A DNA stretch of 62,366 nucleotides from an uncultured Spirochaeta sp. (GCA_937140905.1 CAKZQO010000053.1:1-62366); one strand, 5' to 3'. Numbered from the stretch's first letter, positions 42,230-61,668 are shown. Numbers and translations are program-made. Notes: generated by a model from the sequence alone, not told the origin.

Positions 42230-42577
42230 ATGAAACGATGGATTTTAATGAGCCTATTGGTGTTCCTCTCCGTTTCCCTTGTCTTCGCTTCTGGGGCAAA
42301 GGAAAAGCAAGAGCAGAAAGTGGTAGTGTATTCCAGTGTGGATGAAGCGAACGCCAAGAAGATCCTCGATGCCTTCACAGCTGATACAGGGATAAAAGTA
42401 GCCTTTGTGCACCTTTCCTCTGGCCCTGCCATAGCGCGGATCAAGGCAGAGATTAACAATCCCCAAGCAGACGTATGGATGGGAGCGCCCAGTGAAAACC
42501 ATATCGTGGCAAAGGAAGAGGGGCTTACCATTCCCTATAAGGGAGGTGCTTTTGATTCTTTGGCTCCCCAGTTGTAA
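42230..42577 (+). pseudogene. 5' fragment of an Fe(III)/phosphonate-type ABC substrate-binding protein gene, truncated by the prophage
   Basis: 115 aa with a signal peptide and VVVYSSVDE...GIKV...ADVWMGAP, typical of FbpA/AfuA/PhnS-type binding proteins. Those proteins are normally about 330 aa. The ORF stops 10-15 nt before the phage-end-like sequence. Confidence 0.7.
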
Positions 42578-42586
42578 CGAAACGCA

Positions 42587-42630
42587 TGATTTGAGAAAAA
42601 TTTACACTTGAAATGAGAAAAAACCGTGTT
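42587..42630. repeat. Putative transposable-phage terminal sequence
   Basis: tgatttGAGAAAAAtttaCACTTGAAatGAGAAAAAACCGtg. It starts with TG, has a duplicated TGAGAAAAA (42592-600, 42614-622), and carries CACTTGAA..GAAAAAACCG. That last motif resembles the phage Mu L1 end as I remember it (CACTTGAAGTACGAAAAAAACCG). The exact terminus is not resolved. Confidence 0.4.
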
Positions 42631-42640
42631 TTTAAGGGTC

Positions 42641-43750
42641 TTAATGGGCAATTTCGTGCCTTTTTATCATTGCTTGGAGGCAGTGTAGCATCAATTTTTC
42701 CACTATTTTATGGCTTGCTGTATCGGCACAATGTCCAATCCACGAGCCAAAAGATTTAAGCAATTTCTCATCACTAATAGATCCATTTCTCCAACACTTA
42801 ACGCGTTTCTGCATTTTTCTTATATGTTGTTTTTTAATTAGTTTTTTACCTCCCCATACCCTATACCCAACGAACTCAATGCCATTTTTAACGGAGTCAA
42901 TTCTAGTTTTAGGATTAAGCCTAAGGGATAGTTTAGTAGTTAAAAACGTGTTTATATCACGCAACAGTCTTTTCAGTATCGTTTTGCTTGCATGTAGCAC
43001 AATAAAATCATCCATATACCTAAGATAGTATTTAACCCCTCTTACGTGTTTCATCCAATGGTCAAACTCGTGAAGATAAATGTTCGCAAACAGCTGACTC
43101 ATAAGGTTCCCGATAGGCAGGCCGGTTTCTGGCGTACTATTCAAAATCTCGTCTAGAAGCCACAGAATCCCATCGTCTTTTATATGGTTAGACAGTATAG
43201 ATCTAAGAATCACGCGATTTATCGAAGCAAAGTATTTAGAAATATCTGCTTTAATATAATAATGTACCCCTGGCTTTGAAAGAAAGAACGACAACCTCCT
43301 TGCAGCTTTATGAGTGCCTTTGCCTTTTCTACAAGCATAACTATCATAGATCACCCGTTTATCAAATAAAGGCTCAATCACATTGTTAAGAGCGTGTTGT
43401 ACCACTCTATCCCGGAAAGGAAGAGCCACTATTTGGCGCTTTTTCGGTTCATAGACAATGAAAGGACGGTAATTTCCCACTTTGTACGTTCTCCAAATCA
43501 ATTCGTTCTGGAGCTCAATAAGGTTTTCTTCTAGTGCGTATGAAAACGATAACACTTCTTTTCGATAACGTTTTTGTTTTCTTGCTTTTAGATAGGCGTC
43601 ATAGAGGTTTTGATAATCGTACACTTTTTCGAACACTCTAAACCTCGTTATCCAATAAAAATACGCCCCACCCGCAGGTAGGGCGCTAGCATAGTTTTGC
43701 CTTCCAGTCCTTTTGACTGGATCGGCAGGGAGCGTGATCTGACAATCCAT
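42641..43750 (-). CDS. DGR reverse transcriptase
   Basis: 369-aa ORF. RT motifs PKKRQIVALPFRDRVVQHAL, IGNLMSQLFANIYL (SQ signature) and RYMDDFIV. No En/maturase extension. The true start may be the GTG at ~43636 (RVFEKVYDYQNLYDAYLKARK), leaving a ~165-nt spacer after TR. Confidence 0.93.
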   Translation of the reverse strand: MDCQITLPADPVKRTGRQNYASALPAGGAYFYWITRFRVFEKVYDYQNLYDAYLKARKQKRYRKEVLSFSYALEENLIELQNELIWRTYKVGNYRPFIVYEPKKRQIVALPFRDRVVQHALNNVIEPLFDKRVIYDSYACRKGKGTHKAARRLSFFLSKPGVHYYIKADISKYFASINRVILRSILSNHIKDDGILWLLDEILNSTPETGLPIGNLMSQLFANIYLHEFDHWMKHVRGVKYYLRYMDDFIVLHASKTILKRLLRDINTFLTTKLSLRLNPKTRIDSVKNGIEFVGYRVWGGKKLIKKQHIRKMQKRVKCWRNGSISDEKLLKSFGSWIGHCADTASHKIVEKLMLHCLQAMIKRHEIAH

Positions 43751-43801
43751 CTGTCACTGCGATCGGCGCCGTGACGCCGAATCGTCGAGTCATGTTGATT
43801 C

Positions 43802-43910
43802 TCACAGGCAAGACGCACACCAATGTTCGTGCTCACATTCCACGGCCAGTTGTTCACGTTCACAGCCCGAGGCCCCGCAAACACGCCGTTGTCCCAGTTC
43901 GCGCCTACTA
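43802..43910 (-). repeat. DGR template repeat (TR), non-coding
   Basis: 109 nt, 95/109 identical to VR at a 473-nt offset. Begins 4 nt after the avd stop. Rich in AAC codons when read in the VR frame (track ORF 43648-43917 is the resulting spurious translation). Confidence 0.92.
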
Positions 43911-43913
43911 ACA

Positions 43914-44243
43914 TCACGCCCCCTTAAGGAGACCGCCTACAATGCGGCCTATCTCAGCCACCATCTTACTAGCTGTCTCATAGCTATGGTGACTGAGGTA
44001 TTTCCTACGATGGCTATGTCGTATCAACCACCGAAGGATATCGAGCTGGTTGTCGATCTCATACAGTCCTGATAGTTTCTGTTTGGATTTGTTTGTCCGG
44101 ATAGTCTTAAGCAGGATATCATAGCAAGTGTTTTTAATCTGGCTACACAGGGCAAACTTTTCATGTTTTGGGAATCTGTCCACGATAGGGAAAAACCATT
44201 CCACAAAATCTTCAAGTTTCTGCCACAAAATAAACCCTTCCAA
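43914..44243 (-). CDS. avd: DGR accessory variability determinant (Avd, four-helix-bundle protein)
   Basis: 109 aa with a TTG start. Basic helical protein of the family annotated as 23S rRNA intervening-sequence protein (FPKHEKFALCSQI...). Positioned between the target gene and TR. Confidence 0.85.
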   Translation of the reverse strand: MEGFILWQKLEDFVEWFFPIVDRFPKHEKFALCSQIKNTCYDILLKTIRTNKSKQKLSGLYEIDNQLDILRWLIRHSHRRKYLSHHSYETASKMVAEIGRIVGGLLKGA

Positions 44244-44264
44244 TCCAGACCCCCAGATACCAGA

Positions 44265-45458
44265 TTACAGACTGTCACAGGCAAGACGCACACCAACGTA
44301 CGCGCCCACATCCCACGGCCAGCTGCCCACGCTCACAGCCCGAGGCCCCGCAAACACGCCGTCGCCCCAGCCCGCGCCCACTAGATACGCTACGAGGCCT
44401 GTGTTATTTGGCAGATACGCCTGCCCCTTACCGGAACCCAGCACGTTTTGCCACGCCCACGACGTGGAATCATGCCGGTTGGACAGTTCATCTAACCATT
44501 CCCAGAGATTCCCTACTGCATCCACAATGTTATATGCGCTAATGGCCGCCGGCTTTACGCCCGTACTAGGATCATATGCGCCTGTGGAGGGATTTACTCG
44601 GCATCCAGTACGGGTGCGGCCCGTGTTGCTTGTTTTTGTCCACCCGTAGGTGTCTGCATTATCAAGCCCCTGAGGATTCCCATAGGCGGCCCTGATCCAC
44701 TCCCCATACGTTAGGAGTCGCTTCCCTATACGACTGGCCAATTCATTGAAGGTATACCAGTTCAGCCCCTCGGTGCCTGACACCGGGATTTGGCCATATC
44801 GTGACTGTAGGCGCCCAGAAGCGATATGGAGGCCGTTCGTGCCGCTCTCGAATGTGATGGTCTCTGCGGCACTGGAAAGATAGATATCTACCCAGATATG
44901 GCCGATTTTTACCATACCTTCAGGTGAGCATATAGGGCGGTTTTTCAAGTCCCAGACGCTGTTGGGAACAATCCCTACAGTTACATTATCTCTCCAGTTA
45001 GGGGTGCCGTTGCCGAATTTTACACCGCTGCCATCTATAGGCACCCAGAGGCCATCACTGGAAACAATCCTGATATGCCCGTAGTGGAACCCGCCGATTT
45101 TGCGGGAGGATGTTTCCGTATACCCAGCAGGGTAAGTAGAGTTAAGGCTGATCTTAAACACTCCATCTCCGCCGTTATCACAGAGATAGACGTAATAATC
45201 TTTTCCTACCTCAAACGAAGAACCCTGATCCAGATCTAGGGCAGATAATTCAATGTCGTTCCGTACGGTGTAGATCTTCCATGTTTGGTTTAGTAGGGAT
45301 ATAACCGTATCTTTTTTTACGATTATTTTGTTCTCCGTATAGGAGAAGGGGTTCTTTTTCTCCAGGTAGGCTGGTCCGGGGGATTTTACATCATGGAACA
45401 ATGCAAGCCATTCTACAGATGCGTCGTCCACATAGTCTTTCACTCGGTATAAAGACAT
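44265..45458 (-). CDS. DGR target: phage tail-fibre / receptor-binding protein with a C-terminal FGE-sulfatase / C-type-lectin-fold domain
   Basis: 397 aa. Last structural gene of the tail module. The C-terminal YGEWIRAAYG...VGNLWEWL...VR pattern resembles Mtd/TvpA-like DGR targets. Confidence 0.88.
   Translation of the reverse strand: MSLYRVKDYVDDASVEWLALFHDVKSPGPAYLEKKNPFSYTENKIIVKKDTVISLLNQTWKIYTVRNDIELSALDLDQGSSFEVGKDYYVYLCDNGGDGVFKISLNSTYPAGYTETSSRKIGGFHYGHIRIVSSDGLWVPIDGSGVKFGNGTPNWRDNVTVGIVPNSVWDLKNRPICSPEGMVKIGHIWVDIYLSSAAETITFESGTNGLHIASGRLQSRYGQIPVSGTEGLNWYTFNELASRIGKRLLTYGEWIRAAYGNPQGLDNADTYGWTKTSNTGRTRTGCRVNPSTGAYDPSTGVKPAAISAYNIVDAVGNLWEWLDELSNRHDSTSWAWQNVLGSGKGQAYLPNNTGLVAYLVGAGWGDGVFAGPRAVSVGSWPWDVGAYVGVRLACDSL
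44275..44383 (-). repeat. DGR variable repeat (VR), within the 3' end of the target gene
   Basis: Encodes LVGAGWGDGVFAGPRAVSVGSWPWDVGAYVGVRLAC. It has 14 substitutions relative to TR, all at template A. Confidence 0.92.
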
Positions 45459-45744: not shown

Positions 45745-46148
45745 ATGTCCTCCTTAAAGCTTTTTAAGTATGTACGGATCTCACTGATCCTTTTCCTAGC
45801 CCTTTCTCGCTGGATGATCACCTCATTTGGAGGCTCCTTTCCATTGTCTAATTTGCGGATAATGTACCAGTCCGTCTGATTTAAATAATCCTGGTACAGC
45901 GACAGTTCTTTCTTCATCTGGATTTCAGGTGGGATAGGGGCAGGGTCGTATTGCAACGTTCCATCTTCTTTTATTACCCACAGCAACTCTCCGTCTTCTC
46001 CGACAAGATTAACTGGCAGAGGGCCTGACAACTCATTCTTAGATATCTGTACAACAGTAGTATCTTCAACTTCACGGGATAGAGTATAACCAGCTAGGTA
46101 CTGTCTACCGCAGATTTTTTTGATCTGGACAGAATAGATCGGCTTCAT
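45741..46148 (-). CDS. Phage hypothetical protein (possibly fibre-associated or a chaperone)
   Basis: 135 aa. Overlaps both neighbours by 4 nt. Confidence 0.55.
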   Translation of the reverse strand: MKPIYSVQIKKICGRQYLAGYTLSREVEDTTVVQISKNELSGPLPVNLVGEDGELLWVIKEDGTLQYDPAPIPPEIQMKKELSLYQDYLNQTDWYIIRKLDNGKEPPNEVIIQRERARKRISEIRTYLKSFKEDI

Positions 46149-46666
46149 GGTTTTCCTATATATAGCCTTCCAAAGGAGATAAACCTAGGATCATTCATTG
46201 AGTAGCTACGCTCAGATACGCCGTTGATTCCTTCTTCAGACTTGAGCGTAGAATCTATAAATACAATTCTATCCGCTTCCGTTTTTACAAATAAGGCCAC
46301 ATGAGATATACGGTTATCTTCTCCCATAAAAAGCAGATCTCCTGGGCCCAGCTCAGACAAGGAAAGTTCTTTTGTATATCTTTTTAGTCCATAAGAAGTC
46401 TCATCTTTAAATAGGAGAAAATATCCATAATCCCTTGTAGCATATTCATAACAGCGGATAACCAATCCCGAACAATCAACTACGATTTTCGGTAACGGAT
46501 CCTGCCCTCCCCATTGATAGCCTGCTCCCGCTTCAATGTATTTCCGAGCGTACTCAATTGCTTTTTGGCGTACTTCCTCAGGAGCAATAATCACATCATA
46601 GCTGTCCCTTATGGAACAGGACGATGTAGCCAATATGATAGAGACGACTAATAACACACCCTTCAT
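46145..46666 (-). CDS. NlpC/P60-family cell-wall hydrolase lipoprotein (phage-encoded)
   Basis: Start moved to the ATG at 46666 (MKGVLLVVSIILATSSC lipobox), directly after the upstream stop. Catalytic Cys context VVDCSGLV and His context ISHVALFV. Confidence 0.78.
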   Translation of the reverse strand: MKGVLLVVSIILATSSCSIRDSYDVIIAPEEVRQKAIEYARKYIEAGAGYQWGGQDPLPKIVVDCSGLVIRCYEYATRDYGYFLLFKDETSYGLKRYTKELSLSELGPGDLLFMGEDNRISHVALFVKTEADRIVFIDSTLKSEEGINGVSERSYSMNDPRFISFGRLYIGKP

Positions 46667-49233
46667 ATCAATATCCCCCGTTGACCGATAAATAACAGCT
46701 CCAACTCCTGTCCAGGCCAGTACTGGAATGATAGCTCTGATCCATTCGGCCCAACAGGAATAATTAACATCATAGAAGATCTTAAATAATCTACATAACT
46801 TCCCGTTAGATTCATCGATACGTAAGGAGTAAAGCAGTCCACAGGTCCTAGGTTGGAACCAAACGGCCGAAATGCTACTCGTGTGTTTCCCCACGCGACA
46901 TTTTGGGCTGGATTGTATGAGCAGTAAACGTCTAGAATTACACCTTTAATGTTAGTGTAGGATCGTCTGGCAATATTAACTGTGTACCATACTTGAGAAG
47001 TGGTGATGGGAGTGTTAACAAGGGTAACGCCTGGATCATTCCACCAAATCATGTGGCCCATATAATATTCACCATTCGCGATAGCTTGGTCCGGTATATC
47101 ATGGATTATCTTGTTTTGTGCGTCTAGCGCTTTTAATCCATCGATTGTAGAGATTCTGATTCTTCGGTTTATAGCATCCTTAATGTCGATCAGACCATCT
47201 GCAATCTTGAGCTGACCATTTGATCCTTGCCAGAAACCGGGGACTGCTTGTCCAGTATCCGTTCCATCCTCTGTGTAGCGGTTTCCACCTCTGATCGATC
47301 CTCCAGGTTGTAGTTTGATGTATTTAGAGAATAGCTTTTCTATGAAGGTATAATTAGATAAGTTTTCAATAAAAGTTTGATTTGCGGGTAGAGATTGAGA
47401 GAGCGGATCCGATCCGACAGGTGCGATCTTAGATACGTAGAATCGTTTGGATAATTGCATCGCTTTTGCAAACCGGAAGGAGCCAAGGGTACGATCTCCC
47501 CACTTTGCGTATAACGGTGAAAAGAGGCTCATGTTCTTGTGCGTTGCCAGAATATCCACATATCCTGCATCAATGTCCAATCGAGATACGTAGTAGGTTT
47601 GCTGGATCAGATAGCCTCGTACTCCGGAGGATTCTGCTACGCTCAAGTGCCAGTTTGAGGTATCTAGTTTATCCGCCAAGCGTACTTCTATCTGCGTTTT
47701 CGCATCCGATAGAGACACGTTTCCATTCCAGTCTGCATTCAGCGAACAGGATTCAGGGGTCAACTCTAAACGCGCAGCCCCCAACAGCGTCAACTCGTCT
47801 GCAGATCCCTCAGGTCCTTTGATAGTTTTTGCGAGGGAACGGGGTTGGGCAAGGGTGGGGGCAGCCAGGCCCACGCATCGGTAGTCGTAGACCTGGGTCT
47901 CTGCGTCAAACGACCGCTCCGTTAGTAGCGCCAGGGCATCGATGCCTGCGTAAGGGTCGATCAACCGGAGAATTGATCCGAGGGGTAGGGAGTAGTCTAG
48001 CTTGAAGCGGTACCGCCAGCAAGCGGAACGGATTCGCTCGGCACGGAAGGCACATAGCCTTCGTGCGGTGTCGCCGTCATGAATATAGAGGGCGTCGTAC
48101 CGGTCTACGGATGCGGGGTTAGGTTTTAGATCGTATCGCAGTACCACCTCTGCGGATCGATACACGACGTCGCCTCGAATGTTGCAATAGTAGATGTGGC
48201 GAGGGGAGATGTCGGTATTGCGGTAAGCAATCCTGGCGCGTCGATTTTCGAAGATGGCAACTTCCCGGTGAATGCCGAACTCGTACTTTTCCTCGATTGT
48301 GTGATTCTTCGTAAGCACAAGGGAGGAGAAATCTTTATTCACTTCCACCTCTCCTCGTTCATTAACACGGTGTGCCAGGGCCTTGTCATCGTACTCGAAC
48401 CAGGTTTCCTGGACGTTTGCTTCCTCGGGCCATAGGAATCCTGGTTGGATAGGCCATCCTGAACGCAAGCCATTGTCTCCGAAGGGCAAGTCTGCCATGT
48501 ACAGCAGGGTGTTCGTCCTGGACTTTAAGGGGTAGTAGGATAGTTCTACTGCATCTGCCTCTTTGGGCAGTTTCTCGATCTCCAGCGGGGCTTGAATGTC
48601 GGTCTCCGTGAGGAGGATGGATGGACTAGGTGTGTCGTACAGATATTGGAAAAGGACCAGTTTCCCATACGAATCGAACCGGTAAGTGAACCCATACTCA
48701 TAGAGGAGGGTGTCTAATGCGTCTTTAATCGTGCCCTCATCTACGGAAAATCCCTGCAGGACCCTGTCGATAGTTGTCGATAGATCGAACTCTACACCTG
48801 CTAGGCTGAGTAACCGATGAACGGCGCTTTGGGCTGGGTACAACGGATGGCAGACATAGGCATTTTCGATGACTAACCCGTCTGAGGGGGTAATGTTTCG
48901 TTCTAGCCTGTAAGTAAAGTCCTCTAGCTCTACCTCAATGTCTGCGACATCGGGCTGCCCCGATACCGAGGCGCCGTGGGATTGGATACGCAACGAGGAG
49001 GGAGCTATCCGACCAGTGAACTCTCGCACCCCCTCCAAATCCACGGTAGCTAGGACACCTTCCGCGGCAAGCAAGGTGAGTAGATCCGATGAGTAGCGGA
49101 ATACGACTACTCGAGTGCTCACCGCATGGCGAAACTCTTCGTTGCAAGCATAGTCTGTGGATCGGTAGGCTCGAACGAGCGCAGATACATCGTGTTCCTG
49201 GGTACCCACAATCAGTTTACAGGTGATCGTCAT
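46663..49233 (-). CDS. Phage tail-tip / distal tail protein (large)
   Basis: 856 aa, immediately downstream of the tape measure gene. Call is by position in the gene order. Confidence 0.65.
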   Translation of the reverse strand: MTITCKLIVGTQEHDVSALVRAYRSTDYACNEEFRHAVSTRVVVFRYSSDLLTLLAAEGVLATVDLEGVREFTGRIAPSSLRIQSHGASVSGQPDVADIEVELEDFTYRLERNITPSDGLVIENAYVCHPLYPAQSAVHRLLSLAGVEFDLSTTIDRVLQGFSVDEGTIKDALDTLLYEYGFTYRFDSYGKLVLFQYLYDTPSPSILLTETDIQAPLEIEKLPKEADAVELSYYPLKSRTNTLLYMADLPFGDNGLRSGWPIQPGFLWPEEANVQETWFEYDDKALAHRVNERGEVEVNKDFSSLVLTKNHTIEEKYEFGIHREVAIFENRRARIAYRNTDISPRHIYYCNIRGDVVYRSAEVVLRYDLKPNPASVDRYDALYIHDGDTARRLCAFRAERIRSACWRYRFKLDYSLPLGSILRLIDPYAGIDALALLTERSFDAETQVYDYRCVGLAAPTLAQPRSLAKTIKGPEGSADELTLLGAARLELTPESCSLNADWNGNVSLSDAKTQIEVRLADKLDTSNWHLSVAESSGVRGYLIQQTYYVSRLDIDAGYVDILATHKNMSLFSPLYAKWGDRTLGSFRFAKAMQLSKRFYVSKIAPVGSDPLSQSLPANQTFIENLSNYTFIEKLFSKYIKLQPGGSIRGGNRYTEDGTDTGQAVPGFWQGSNGQLKIADGLIDIKDAINRRIRISTIDGLKALDAQNKIIHDIPDQAIANGEYYMGHMIWWNDPGVTLVNTPITTSQVWYTVNIARRSYTNIKGVILDVYCSYNPAQNVAWGNTRVAFRPFGSNLGPVDCFTPYVSMNLTGSYVDYLRSSMMLIIPVGPNGSELSFQYWPGQELELLFIGQRGILI

Positions 49234-59028: not shown

Positions 59029-61668
59029 TTATTTTCTGATCATTTCCTGTTTTAACGGTGTAATGATCCATATAAGGCTTGCCTTTCCTCGGTTCACTCT
59101 ATCATGCGATAGCGTCTTAGCATCATCAAAGAGAGCGTCAGGAAGGTATAGTATTATGTTGTCTGATTGCTTTGTTCTCAACGCTTGGACTATGCTATTT
59201 TTTGTTCCTGCTGTAGGTGTTTTCACCTCCCACACCTCCCCATCAACCATAAGATCCGGACTCTTCAGCAAATCACTCCTAGGAAGCAGCTTCACCATTC
59301 TTCCTTCTCCTGCCAAGCGTTGCGCAATGGGTTCCTCCGGCAGTTTCTTGCCTTTATAGCTTTCATGTTTATACAGCTTACCACCAGATGGATATTCCTG
59401 CACTAGCTCAAACCCTTCTAGAGATTCAGGGTTGTACAGCCTGACACTTCTAAACCCGGCTTTATCGGCAAAGTCTTTGAGATCCTTCATAATACCGTAT
59501 CGAAGGGCCCGTTTTGCCATTTCGTCCGTTAGTTCATAGAACGATCCACTTTTTATCGGATTCCCCCCAAACCCTTCCTGCGGCTTAAAGGTTTTCCGTA
59601 GTTTCGCCATGGATAGATTCTGCACAGGGACCTGAGCGATCTCCTCCTCATAAATCCCCCGCACCGTGGTGCGGCAGTTGAAATGGAAGGGCGGCCAATG
59701 GTCCTCCCAGAATGGGTGATCGGCTGGAAGCACCAGGCCCACCAGGGGGCGGCAGATGGAGCTGGTCCGCTCATCCTCCAGCACCATGAGGGCATAAGCC
59801 CGGGGTTTGGCTCGATCGAACTGCATCCGGCGGCCCGCATTGTAGGCGGTCTGGATATTGGTTCGGTACACTGTTTCCCAGTACCCGGGCTTGAGGGTTG
59901 CACCTTCCGACTCCGCAATCGCCTTCACATCCGCCCAGGCCCGCTCAAAGCCTTCGCCCTTCTCGAGCGTGTGTATCAACCGTCCCCGGACCGCTTCGAT
60001 ATAGTCGCATGAGGTAAGCTTTGCCAGGGTAAAGGCCCGAAAGGCCAGCTTCGGTTCCAGGGCCTGCCATTCTGCTTTGGTCAGGCTTACCCGGGCTTTC
60101 AGAAAGTGAATCGCCTCTTCGAAGGGGAGGGGATGGTATTCGGTCTCATCAGCGAGCGTAAGGCGCTGGCCCCGGCCCGCGTGATCCATCCCCTCGAGAA
60201 GCGCCGCGGCCAGTACCTGCTCGGTTCGCCGTATGAGCTCTGGCTCCGTGTCCGGAAACGGAGCCCCGCGAAGCACTTCTACCCCCGGGGCCGTCCCTGC
60301 GGATGAAAGGGAGGCGATCCACCGCGCCACCGCCTTGCCGATCAGCGGTAGGACAAGCGCCCGGGCCCGCTCTGCCAACCGGTCCAGCTCCGCCAGTTTC
60401 GTACGCTCATCCGCCTCCAGCTCTAAAAGAGGGGCTTGCGGACTTTTTTTTTTACTCTCTGTGTCTGCCATTGCAAGAGAGAGCAAATCCTGGGGCTGCC
60501 CCCCCGGCTTCAGGAACACATCCTCTTCACCTGCGGGCTGTGGCAACCCATACCGGCTATACAACTCAGCCCGGGACACAGGTATCCCCCGATCAATCGC
60601 CTGCACCAACTCATCCCACGTGGCGTGCTCATCCAGATCAAATCGCACCTGTGGCTGCCACTCCCCCGGCCCGTAGTTCAGCTCCACTACATAGGACACA
60701 AGCCGCTGGAGCGCTTCCGACAACTCCCGGCAGATTCCTTTGGCAAGGGTTTTAAGCACATCCCTATGCACCGAGGCCTGGGAGCGACTCCCATACTCCG
60801 CCTCCTGGGTGGCCAGGCTCTGGCCGGTGATGCCGTAACTGATTTGCTGGTCACACCACTCCATCAGAGAGCGGAATTCGCTCACCTTCTCGGGACTTGT
60901 AAGAAGCTTCACCTCTTTTATGTTCGCCAGAGCCGCCCCCGAACCCGACTGTACCGTGGACAGAAGCTCCGACAGCCGCAACGCCCGCTCCCGCACCCGA
61001 TCCTCCGGCTCGCTCGTGTCAAACAAGGCAAGAATTGAGGGAACCGAAAACTTCTCGGCAGCCAGAATCCAAAACTGGCTGCCCGCTTTCTTGAATTTCC
61101 AGGCCCAGTAGCAGGACTTTAGCGCGCTGGTGCCGTAGGGGTTCTCCGCATCTTTGTCGTAACGATACACTAGCCATTTGTACGGCTGGTCATAGAGATC
61201 AATTAGCTCACCTGTGAGCGTATCCTTGTATTTCAACCGACCTTCCACATCGAAAACGAACCGCTCAGGCTTGCGCAGCACCACATCCTCGACGACCCAC
61301 CAGCCATCCTGGTTTTCCCACACCAGTTCCACGACGCTATACCCATATTCGACCGCTGATAGAAGACGCTTCTCAAGCCCATAGAGCAGGGTTGGATGCA
61401 GATTCTTCTGTACGGTTTCCAGTACGGCCGGCCGCGCCTCTGCCTGCTCGATCCGGGGGACGAACTCCAGGACGGAACTCTTCAGGAGCGCCAGCAGGCT
61501 CTTAATCCGGGGGTCGGTACGCATCTCCCGGTACACGGTGATCCGTTCCCCCGAGTCCCGCAGGACTTCATCGGGATTGGGCATATAGCCTACAAAGGAG
61601 GAAAACAGATCCATAGCAGGAATCACTCGCATCGACAGCCGTTCATCAGCTCGATCGTTTTTCTTCAT
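59029..61668 (-). CDS. Fusion protein: Mu-like portal (DUF935) + MuF/SPP1-gp7 head morphogenesis domain + C-terminal PD-(D/E)xK nuclease-like domain
   Basis: 879 aa. The N-terminus has a DUF935 pattern (YREMRTDPRIKSLL). The MuF core is YRTNIQTAYNAGR...DERTSSICRPL...PPFHFNCRTTV. The C-terminal ~130 aa carry SPDLMVDGEVWEVK (59221-59259). Confidence 0.85.
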   Translation of the reverse strand: MKKNDRADERLSMRVIPAMDLFSSFVGYMPNPDEVLRDSGERITVYREMRTDPRIKSLLALLKSSVLEFVPRIEQAEARPAVLETVQKNLHPTLLYGLEKRLLSAVEYGYSVVELVWENQDGWWVVEDVVLRKPERFVFDVEGRLKYKDTLTGELIDLYDQPYKWLVYRYDKDAENPYGTSALKSCYWAWKFKKAGSQFWILAAEKFSVPSILALFDTSEPEDRVRERALRLSELLSTVQSGSGAALANIKEVKLLTSPEKVSEFRSLMEWCDQQISYGITGQSLATQEAEYGSRSQASVHRDVLKTLAKGICRELSEALQRLVSYVVELNYGPGEWQPQVRFDLDEHATWDELVQAIDRGIPVSRAELYSRYGLPQPAGEEDVFLKPGGQPQDLLSLAMADTESKKKSPQAPLLELEADERTKLAELDRLAERARALVLPLIGKAVARWIASLSSAGTAPGVEVLRGAPFPDTEPELIRRTEQVLAAALLEGMDHAGRGQRLTLADETEYHPLPFEEAIHFLKARVSLTKAEWQALEPKLAFRAFTLAKLTSCDYIEAVRGRLIHTLEKGEGFERAWADVKAIAESEGATLKPGYWETVYRTNIQTAYNAGRRMQFDRAKPRAYALMVLEDERTSSICRPLVGLVLPADHPFWEDHWPPFHFNCRTTVRGIYEEEIAQVPVQNLSMAKLRKTFKPQEGFGGNPIKSGSFYELTDEMAKRALRYGIMKDLKDFADKAGFRSVRLYNPESLEGFELVQEYPSGGKLYKHESYKGKKLPEEPIAQRLAGEGRMVKLLPRSDLLKSPDLMVDGEVWEVKTPTAGTKNSIVQALRTKQSDNIILYLPDALFDDAKTLSHDRVNRGKASLIWIITPLKQEMIRK

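Follow-up and report, generated by a model that had tools for sequence, protein, structure and literature searches.

The stretch considered here comprises 62,366 nucleotides (nt) from an uncultured Spirochaeta sp. (GCA_937140905.1 CAKZQO010000053.1:1-62366) and is referred to, in its whole length, as the window. A group of adjacent elements on its minus strand (42641-45458) raises the question of whether they constitute a complete diversity-generating retroelement (DGR), which protein such an element would diversify and what kind of mobile genome carries it. An earlier note, made from the sequence alone, had proposed a complete DGR at the tail-fibre end of a prophage, with target, avd, template repeat (TR) and reverse transcriptase (RT) following one another on the minus strand, and all four elements have been recovered at or very near the positions given there. 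The cassette is very probably an intact DGR of the type known from phage BPP-1, carried by a temperate, Mu-like transposable siphophage of a spirochaete. It is arranged on the minus strand as an Mtd-like target, avd, TR, a 160-nt structured spacer and RT, and all three of its proteins are homologous by sequence to Mtd, bAvd and bRT of BPP-1, with Avd and the target resembling their counterparts by predicted fold as well.

Genes and repeats of the cassette

Three minus-strand open reading frames (ORFs) were listed for this region, at 44265-45458 (397 amino acids, aa), 43914-44243 (109 aa, TTG start) and 42641-43750 (369 aa). Together with the repeats, and with the start of the last frame revised as explained below, the cassette consists of the following features:

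44265-45458, minus strand: target gene, for a 397-aa Mtd-like, putative receptor-binding (tail-fibre) protein with a C-terminal C-type-lectin/FGE fold
44270-44383, minus strand: variable repeat (VR), the last 38 codons of the target, with substituted positions spanning 44297-44379
44270-44296, minus strand: 3' end of the VR resembling a homing signal (IMH), with 22 nt identical to the TR and nearly adenine-free, then CAGTC
43914-44243, minus strand: avd, accessory variability determinant, 109 aa, TTG start, isoelectric point (pI) 9.5
43797-43910, minus strand: TR, 114 nt, of which 43910-43805 is the part predicted to be copied
43637-43796, minus strand: spacer (Sp), 160 nt, non-coding, between the TR and the RT start
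42641-43636, minus strand: DGR RT, 331 aa, most likely with a GTG start

The region contains a single pair of direct repeats of 114 nt that share 86% identity (43797-43910 and 44270-44383). The upstream copy is identified as the VR because it makes up the last 38 codons of the 397-aa ORF, and the downstream copy as the TR because its start is the fourth base after the stop of the 109-aa ORF (stop codon 43916-43914, first TR base 43910), a spacing that had been noted before. The earlier note had placed the target gene and both repeats correctly, with bounds that were slightly too narrow: the VR had been given about 36 codons, and the TR had been drawn as 109 nt (43802-43910), missing its last 5 nt. 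A comparison of the two copies on the coding strand gives 16 mismatches over 114 positions, of which 15 coincide with TR adenines (14 A>G and one A>T), as had been anticipated for a DGR; given 23 adenines in the 114-nt TR, the hypergeometric probability of such a bias is 3.5e-12. Within the part predicted to be copied, every mismatch is at an adenine (14 of 14), and the changes in the VR affect the first and second positions of AAC codons. The sole mismatch outside adenines (G>C, TR 43801), together with one A>G change (TR 43799), is located 3' of the predicted start of complementary DNA (cDNA) synthesis, in the putative IMH/IMH* region. There, the CAGTC of the VR has GAATC as its TR counterpart, the IMH* equivalent, after which homology ends. 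By analogy with BPP-1, 44270-44296 may function as the homing signal.

The copied part of the TR contains 20 adenines, distributed over seven AAC/AAT codons, four single-adenine codons and two silent third positions. Their randomisation would generate about 4.4e10 protein variants and could never create a stop codon, since the TR adenines sit in AAC/AAT codons. When both strands of the window were scanned with adenines masked, the TR matched the VR at 88 of 88 non-adenine positions and the next best site at 39 of 88, so that no remote VR was found on either strand of the window.

The description of the TR as non-coding requires some qualification, as the repeat does sit within a mechanically called 89-aa ORF (43648-43917, minus strand). 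Coding sequence copied in the TR is the only reason why this frame is open. Three other public contigs (L015, L016 and L017) carry the same DGR, VR included, at 100% identity, and in their public gene calls the TR appears, in the VR frame, as an 88-aa 'gene' at the place corresponding to 43648-43917 (minus strand), while the TTG-start avd is missed. This DGR is systematically mis-annotated, with an 88-aa gene called in place of avd.

The target is homologous to Mtd as judged from Pfam, a PDB sequence search and its predicted fold. Pfam profiles detect the second domain of Mtd (mtd_2nd, 1.1e-25) and FGE-sulfatase (5e-7), PHROG assigns a tail protein (2.2e-65) and the PDB search retrieves Mtd 1yu4 (E = 6e-18) over residues 82-397, aligned through the C-terminal ...RLACDSL. 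An AlphaFold model (predicted local distance difference test, pLDDT, 77.5; predicted template-modelling score, pTM, 0.79) has five Mtd variants as its top Foldseek matches (E ~5e-19, template-modelling score, TM, 0.6), followed by FGE enzymes and a Thermus DGR variable protein. The VR is thus located at the C-terminus of a protein with a C-type-lectin/FGE fold, the placement expected of a DGR target; the receptor-binding role is proposed by analogy with BPP-1.

Avd had been described as a basic four-helix bundle, and this description is well supported. With its pI of 9.5, the protein scores above the NCBIfam equivalog cut-off for DivGenRetAVD (115.5 bits against 80) and also matches Pfam bAvd (1.8e-31), the PHROG family 'Avd protein of DGR' (5.4e-26) and PDB 4dwl (2.8e-5). 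A single-sequence AlphaFold model (pLDDT 84) forms a four-helix bundle, whose best structural matches are the Avd chains of 8ub7, the BPP-1 ribonucleoprotein (RNP), and free bAvd 4dwl (TM 0.84, root-mean-square deviation 1.5-1.9 A).

The RT is, by its sequence, a member of the DGR clade, being compact, with an [I/L]GxxxSQ motif and no extra domains. The motifs reported earlier, IGNLMSQ and RYMDDF, both occur in the translation and align with those of bRT (IGNLMSQLFAN with IGSLTSQLFAN, RYMDDF with RYMDDI), and the reported lack of a maturase or endonuclease domain holds. Among solved structures, the best match is 8ub7_A, the BPP-1 bRT (E = 7.7e-55, 190 bits, chain residues 8-314 of 328), with group II and 'retron-type' RTs following at ~1e-19 to 1e-20 in the sequence search. 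In NCBIfam, the group II model yields 139.6 bits (cut-off 300) and the retron model 56.7 (cut-off 235); other matches are phrog_1423 (3.3e-126) and Pfam RVT_1. These sequence and profile scores agree with the earlier assignment to the DGR type and not to retrons or group II introns. RTs of the latter two kinds share the RVT_1 palm and fingers and give weak matches, but the protein described here differs in having no maturase/X or endonuclease domain, and no intron RNA or msr/msd accompanies it. An Rfam scan of the window detected no cognate RNA, with no family reaching its gathering score anywhere in the 62 kb and hence no tRNA or known riboswitch.

The end of the RT gene agrees with the earlier note, which had placed the gene at 42641-43750, but its start most likely does not. 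An ATG at 43750, giving 369 aa, was rejected in favour of the GTG at 43636, which is preceded at a distance of 6 nt by a GAGG Shine-Dalgarno sequence and gives the 331-aa RT (P0121) of the contig's public record. Homologues are mostly ~329-340 aa long, with a few of the listed proteins longer, bRT aligns only from residue 39 of the 369-aa frame onwards, and an N-terminal xxYExVYDxxNLY is common to 30 RT homologues. It follows from the GTG 43636 start that the gap between TR and RT is a spacer of 160 nt and not of 46 nt.

Spacer RNA elements and a proposed copying mechanism

The spacer folds far better than expected by chance as a single sequence (z = -4.76, with none of 200 shuffles folding as well). 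The spacer was compared with relatives drawn from genomes, viral contigs and metagenomes, and the published cryo-electron microscopy work on the BPP-1 RNP guided this comparison (bioRxiv 10.1101/2023.10.23.563531). In a comparative model built on an alignment of 11 sequences, 92% of cells are paired and 23 of 40 pairs are changed on both sides; none of 500 shuffles reaches this level, and sliding of the partners gives at most 49% paired. The minimum free energy fold of the single sequence, where the 5' part is paired differently, was set aside, the comparative model being preferred because covariation supports it. The structured RNA that a DGR carries in cis is therefore present, its stem-loops and stop duplex being backed by covariation. 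The elements are the following:

43913-43924, minus strand: upstream strand of the predicted stop duplex, the avd 3' end AGGGGGCGUGAU, stop codon included
43760-43784, minus strand: stem-loop 1 (SL1), a 10-bp stem with one bulged U and a CACG tetraloop (CACG/UACG), 12 nt past the TR
43740-43756, minus strand: P2 hairpin, UGACA/UGUCA
43727-43738, minus strand: spacer strand of the predicted stop duplex, AUCACGCUCCCU, one nucleotide (G 43739) past the predicted priming adenosine
43697-43728, minus strand: stem-loop 3 (SL3), extended here by an inserted hairpin and followed by A-rich AAAACUA
43654-43686, minus strand: terminal hairpin, a perfect 10-bp GC-rich stem with a UGCG loop, then AUUUUUAUU

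An Avd-binding stem-loop has been described for BPP-1 and 207 other DGRs (bioRxiv 10.1101/2023.10.23.563531), and SL1, where 8 of 10 pairs are changed on both sides across relatives, is proposed as its counterpart by position and shape, with Avd binding as its presumed function. Further downstream, the 3' arm of P2, GAUUGUCA (43747-43740), can alternatively pair with the 3' end of the TR, UGAGAAUC (43804-43797). UCAGAU is invariant in alignments of relatives, as is the UCA|G that comes before AUCACGCUCCCU in the order of elements, and among 11 relatives pairing amounts to 96% for P2 and 84% for the TR:Sp duplex, with little variation in either. By analogy with BPP-1, adenosine 43740 is the predicted priming nucleotide and G 43805 the predicted first template base; their BPP-1 counterparts are Sp A56/G57 and TR G117 (bioRxiv 10.1101/2023.10.23.563531), and the order found there at Sp A56/G57, an A, a G and then the stop duplex, is mirrored here.

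The duplex between the avd 3' end and the spacer (43913-43924 with 43727-43738) comprises 12 pairs, including one G-U, and covaries in relatives. An RNAduplex comparison of the upstream region and the spacer against shuffles gave over-extended helices and uninformative z-scores, and it was replaced by a contiguous-helix test and column-wise covariation. When the 40 nt upstream of the TR were matched against the spacer in 95 unique relatives, the longest contiguous helix measured 12 bp at the median, and in 63 relatives it beat shuffles at p<=0.05. Its position is conserved at ~50-65 nt into the spacer, with sequences that are quite different between loci. The avd:spacer duplex has its counterpart in the cPRT Stop duplex of BPP-1 (bioRxiv 10.1101/2023.10.23.563531). 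SL3, in which both sides have changed in 3 of 5 pairs, agrees with the portion of the same BPP-1 element described as 'stem-loop plus adenosines'. The terminal hairpin, which ends 8 nt before the GAGG Shine-Dalgarno sequence of the RT, is listed first among the terminator-like structures of the region, has 7 of 10 pairs changed on both sides and stands at the place taken in BPP-1 by the bRT-binding stem-loop; it may serve as a terminator, as an RT-binding element or as both.

The order of RNA elements, namely an Avd-binding stem-loop, a primer strand with A and then G, a stop duplex, a small stem-loop with adenosines and a terminal hairpin, is common to BPP-1 and the present cassette, and so is a similar length of the Sp (140 nt in BPP-1 and 160 nt here). 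Other dimensions differ: the TR extends 17 nt 3' of the predicted start in BPP-1 and 8 nt here, and the 45-nt interrupted terminal stem of BPP-1 contrasts with a short perfect GC stem and U-run resembling an intrinsic terminator.

Taken by analogy with BPP-1 for the priming site, the start and stop points and the homing step, a mechanism can be proposed in which a transcript of the avd 3' end, the TR and the spacer would fold around an RT-Avd complex. SL1 would bind the Avd pentamer, the avd:spacer duplex and SL3 would form the stop element, and the terminal hairpin would bind the RT and may also end the transcript. With GAUUGUCA paired to the TR 3' end, adenosine 43740 would prime cDNA from G 43805, and the RT would copy the TR towards its 5' end, misincorporating opposite the 20 adenines and stopping at the avd:spacer duplex. 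The cDNA would then replace the VR, guided by the IMH-like 3' end, so that 11 codons would be rewritten at the tip of the receptor-binding protein. Such a rewritten tip (~4e10 variants, never a stop codon) would let the phage change or keep its receptors. A more speculative suggestion, and a rather doubtful one, is that the terminal hairpin acts as an intrinsic terminator or attenuator as well as an RT-binding element and that P2 works as an on/off switch, sequestering the primer strand in competition with the TR:spacer duplex. If this were true, the 3' end of the template RNA would be fixed by the terminal hairpin, whose loop is of the UNCG type, and RT expression would be limited to read-through, the terminator and the P2 switch together forming a regulatory layer not described for BPP-1.

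The carrier prophage and its insertion site

The placement of the cassette at the tail-fibre end of a prophage agrees with the gene content on both of its sides. Upstream of the target lie two small ORFs without known function, a tail-associated NlpC/P60 hydrolase, a large tail protein and a 1176-aa tape-measure protein; beyond the tail genes there are head genes, among them a fusion of a Mu-type portal with MuF, and the contig ends in a terminase fragment. On the other side, the RT is the last prophage gene, 68 bp from the right terminus at 42573:

42573-42640, no strand assigned: prophage right terminus, with 5'-TG on the plus strand and two repeats (..TGAGAAAAA..) exactly 22 nt apart

The carrier is considered a Mu-like transposable prophage because an identical element is found at unrelated sites, because its terminus is 5'-TG and because it has Mu-type genes. 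The sequence shared with L015 runs as far as 42573, and the flanks past this point are unrelated (a GAF-domain host gene in L015); 42573 is also the exact end of L016 and L017. In the window, the host flank (42230-42577, plus strand) holds the first third of a gene for a PhnS-like solute-binding protein of an ABC transporter, which the prophage insertion has cut after ~114 codons; the fragment matches profile positions 8-108 of 334, and its stop codon (TAA, 42575-42577) comes from the phage end. The inner terminal repeat, CACTTGAAATGAGAAAAAACCG, resembles the Mu L1 end, CACTTGAAGTACGAAAAAAACCG (CACTTGAA..GAAAAAACCG), and the repeats spaced by 22 nt may be transposase-binding sites. The right terminus is conserved in prophages of Gracilinema. 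The Mu-type morphogenesis genes found here are Portal_Mu (6e-71), Phage_Mu_F (2.7e-13) and a G-like Phage_tail_S (1.1e-7). A related RT, P0138, is found at three loci (L067, L068 and L069) with the same protein and upstream layout and with three unrelated host flanks ~20-110 nt past the RT stop (PhoU/response regulator, IS21/DDE and GH16/ROK), which fits a transposition-type insertion across the phage family.

The window holds 19.8 kb of the prophage, its left half, including the transposase end, being outside the 62-kb contig. Measured from the right terminus, phage sequence extends over 19.8 kb in the window and ~19.6 kb in the L015 contig, these being the two contigs with a host flank, and both break in or near the terminase gene. 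The near-equal break points suggest a repeat or a strain-variable region at that place.

Some further observations concern the surrounding genes. The portal gene (59029-61668, minus strand) codes for an 879-aa fusion of Portal_Mu (6e-71), a MuF domain (Phage_Mu_F, 2.7e-13) and a CdiA_C-like C-terminal toxin domain (1.2e-8), and its product resembles a polymorphic toxin of the MuF type that is packaged with the head. On the same strand, the mechanically called ORFs of the NlpC/P60 protein (46145-46894) and the 856-aa tail protein (46663-49233) overlap by 232 nt, and public calls for the two use downstream starts (173 aa and 803 aa). The prophage (53.0% GC) is richer in GC than the host part (49.1%), and the DGR cassette (45.9%) is poorer.

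Activity, alternative readings and relatives

Current activity of the cassette is plausible, both by analogy with BPP-1 and because every part is intact. In related target clusters formed at 90%, the differences are found mainly at the C-terminal AAC-codon columns, with 6-9 residue states among 15 sequences, and the other columns show at most 3 states almost everywhere. This concentration of hypervariability at the AAC-codon columns indicates that the family has been diversified in nature.

Several observations weigh against the interpretation of the cassette as an intact BPP-1-type DGR. One VR allele is shared by the window, L015, L016 and L017, and the 90% protein cluster contains no VR variants, a comparison made on consensus assemblies only. 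Downstream of the VR, the DNA is predicted to form neither a hairpin nor a cruciform (the fold of 44215-44300 has -2.1 kcal/mol, z = +1.24); such a VR-flanking hairpin is present in BPP-1 and is not universal among DGRs. The TR:spacer primer duplex is compatible with the data and nearly invariant, so that covariation cannot separate it from the competing P2 hairpin. The substitution spectrum is one-sided, with 14 of 15 adenine changes being A>G, though within the range of relatives. In 108 unique related TR/VR pairs, A>G accounts for 715 changes, A>T for 380 and A>C for 291, and the idea that the A>G bias could be the sign of a non-DGR process was rejected, as several relatives are equally G-rich and the bias is not special.

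An alternative reading is that the DGR is structurally intact but now silent, its VR having been shaped by past events and fixed in this phage lineage. The identity of the VR in four independent assemblies and the protein cluster without VR variants point in this direction, and the absence of avd, TR and RT from a sibling prophage in Gracilinema demonstrates that their loss does occur in the family. Nevertheless, silence is considered unlikely here: the ORFs are intact, the YMDD and SQ motifs and all RNA elements are conserved, an IMH-like end is present, and consensus assemblies hide minority VR alleles, while the four assemblies may be from related samples. It is considerably less probable that the DGR mainly serves the bacterial host, with a domesticated, defective prophage diversifying a cell-surface protein and not phage tropism. 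Such a role could be read from a prophage that may be incomplete, with only 19.8 kb of it in the window, and from an insertion that disrupts a host gene and could be old; but the element is 100% identical in at least two insertion sites, two contigs end exactly at the terminus, which implies recent mobility, and the target is an Mtd homologue that follows the tape-measure and tail genes. Finally, an ordinary partial duplication of the target 3' end, with strand-biased A>G change and an unrelated RT of retron or group II type, would account for the 14 A>G transitions among 15 adenine changes but is effectively refuted by the strict direction from TR adenine to any VR base, the single A>T, the restriction of changes to AAC codon positions 1 and 2, the frequent A>T and A>C in the 108 related pairs, the homology of the RT to bRT with failing group II and retron models, and a bona fide Avd gene between the repeats.

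Like BPP-1, the prototype, where the gene order is likewise target-avd-TR-spacer-RT (mtd-avd-TR-brt), the cassette has its VR at the C-terminus of a C-type-lectin fold and its TR adenines in AAC codons. The host phyla differ, being Spirochaetota here and Pseudomonadota for BPP-1, and BPP-1 is a podophage, whereas the present carrier is a Mu-like transposable siphophage. Tail-fibre DGRs have been described before in temperate phages of the transposable or Mu-like kind. In Bacteroides, the hankyphage is a transposable phage whose DGR mutagenises a tail fibre (PMC6199706, PMC12135933). The Mu-like Bacillus phage BalMu-1 has, as here, a SUMF1/FGE-type target, an Avd and an RT near its right end; it is distant, with RT DNA 71% identical over ~160 nt, and differs in having holin and endolysin genes after the RT, which in the window is the last gene, 68 bp from the terminus.

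The cassette is an ordinary one, since it is one of hundreds of close relatives. The searches scored 948 target homologues and more than 7000 RT homologues, with more than 598 RT relatives in IMG/VR viral contigs, and most relatives have the same layout. Within a set of 152 sequences, comprising 151 loci fetched through RT or target relatives and the window's own excerpt, an adenine-biased TR/VR pair was found in 125, of which 120 had the same order of VR and then TR. The phage database returned only four weak RT matches, with BalMu-1 as the sole phage matched at the DNA level; the best RT relative among GTDB representative genomes is 50% identical, and a metagenome scan added few further close relatives. 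DGRs as a class have more than 30,000 catalogued members (count cited in bioRxiv 10.1101/2023.10.23.563531), and the present one is a further example of a well-described and common class that opens no new question. What has been added to the earlier reading is the RT start, the RNA elements of the spacer, the exact phage terminus and the Mu-like carrier. The receptor-binding protein of a temperate transposable spirochaete phage has in this way been pinpointed, with a predicted capacity for tail-fibre retargeting through ~4e10 possible tips, the exact phage terminus and insertion site have been provided, and the public annotation is corrected, with avd restored and the TR no longer called as a gene. 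The RNA architecture of BPP-1 carries over to a distant phylum.

Named relatives are the prophage DGRs from Gracilinema caldarium (Spirochaetota, Breznakiellaceae) and from metagenome-assembled genomes of Treponema and other Spirochaetia, whose targets are 78-84% and whose RTs are 66-71% identical to those of the window. Their tail module, the layout of TR and VR and the elements of the spacer are as in the window, and the right terminus, ending in ..GTTACA, is conserved as well, but their VR alleles and insertion sites are different. One G. caldarium genome contains two such prophages, L036 and a sibling (L037, 4575-4818 of JAJUHW010000007.1) with a precise deletion of avd, TR and RT. In the sibling, the target gene, with its VR and IMH-like end, abuts the phage terminus, and the VR is 83% identical to the TR of L036; this target could be an orphan that is diversified in trans.

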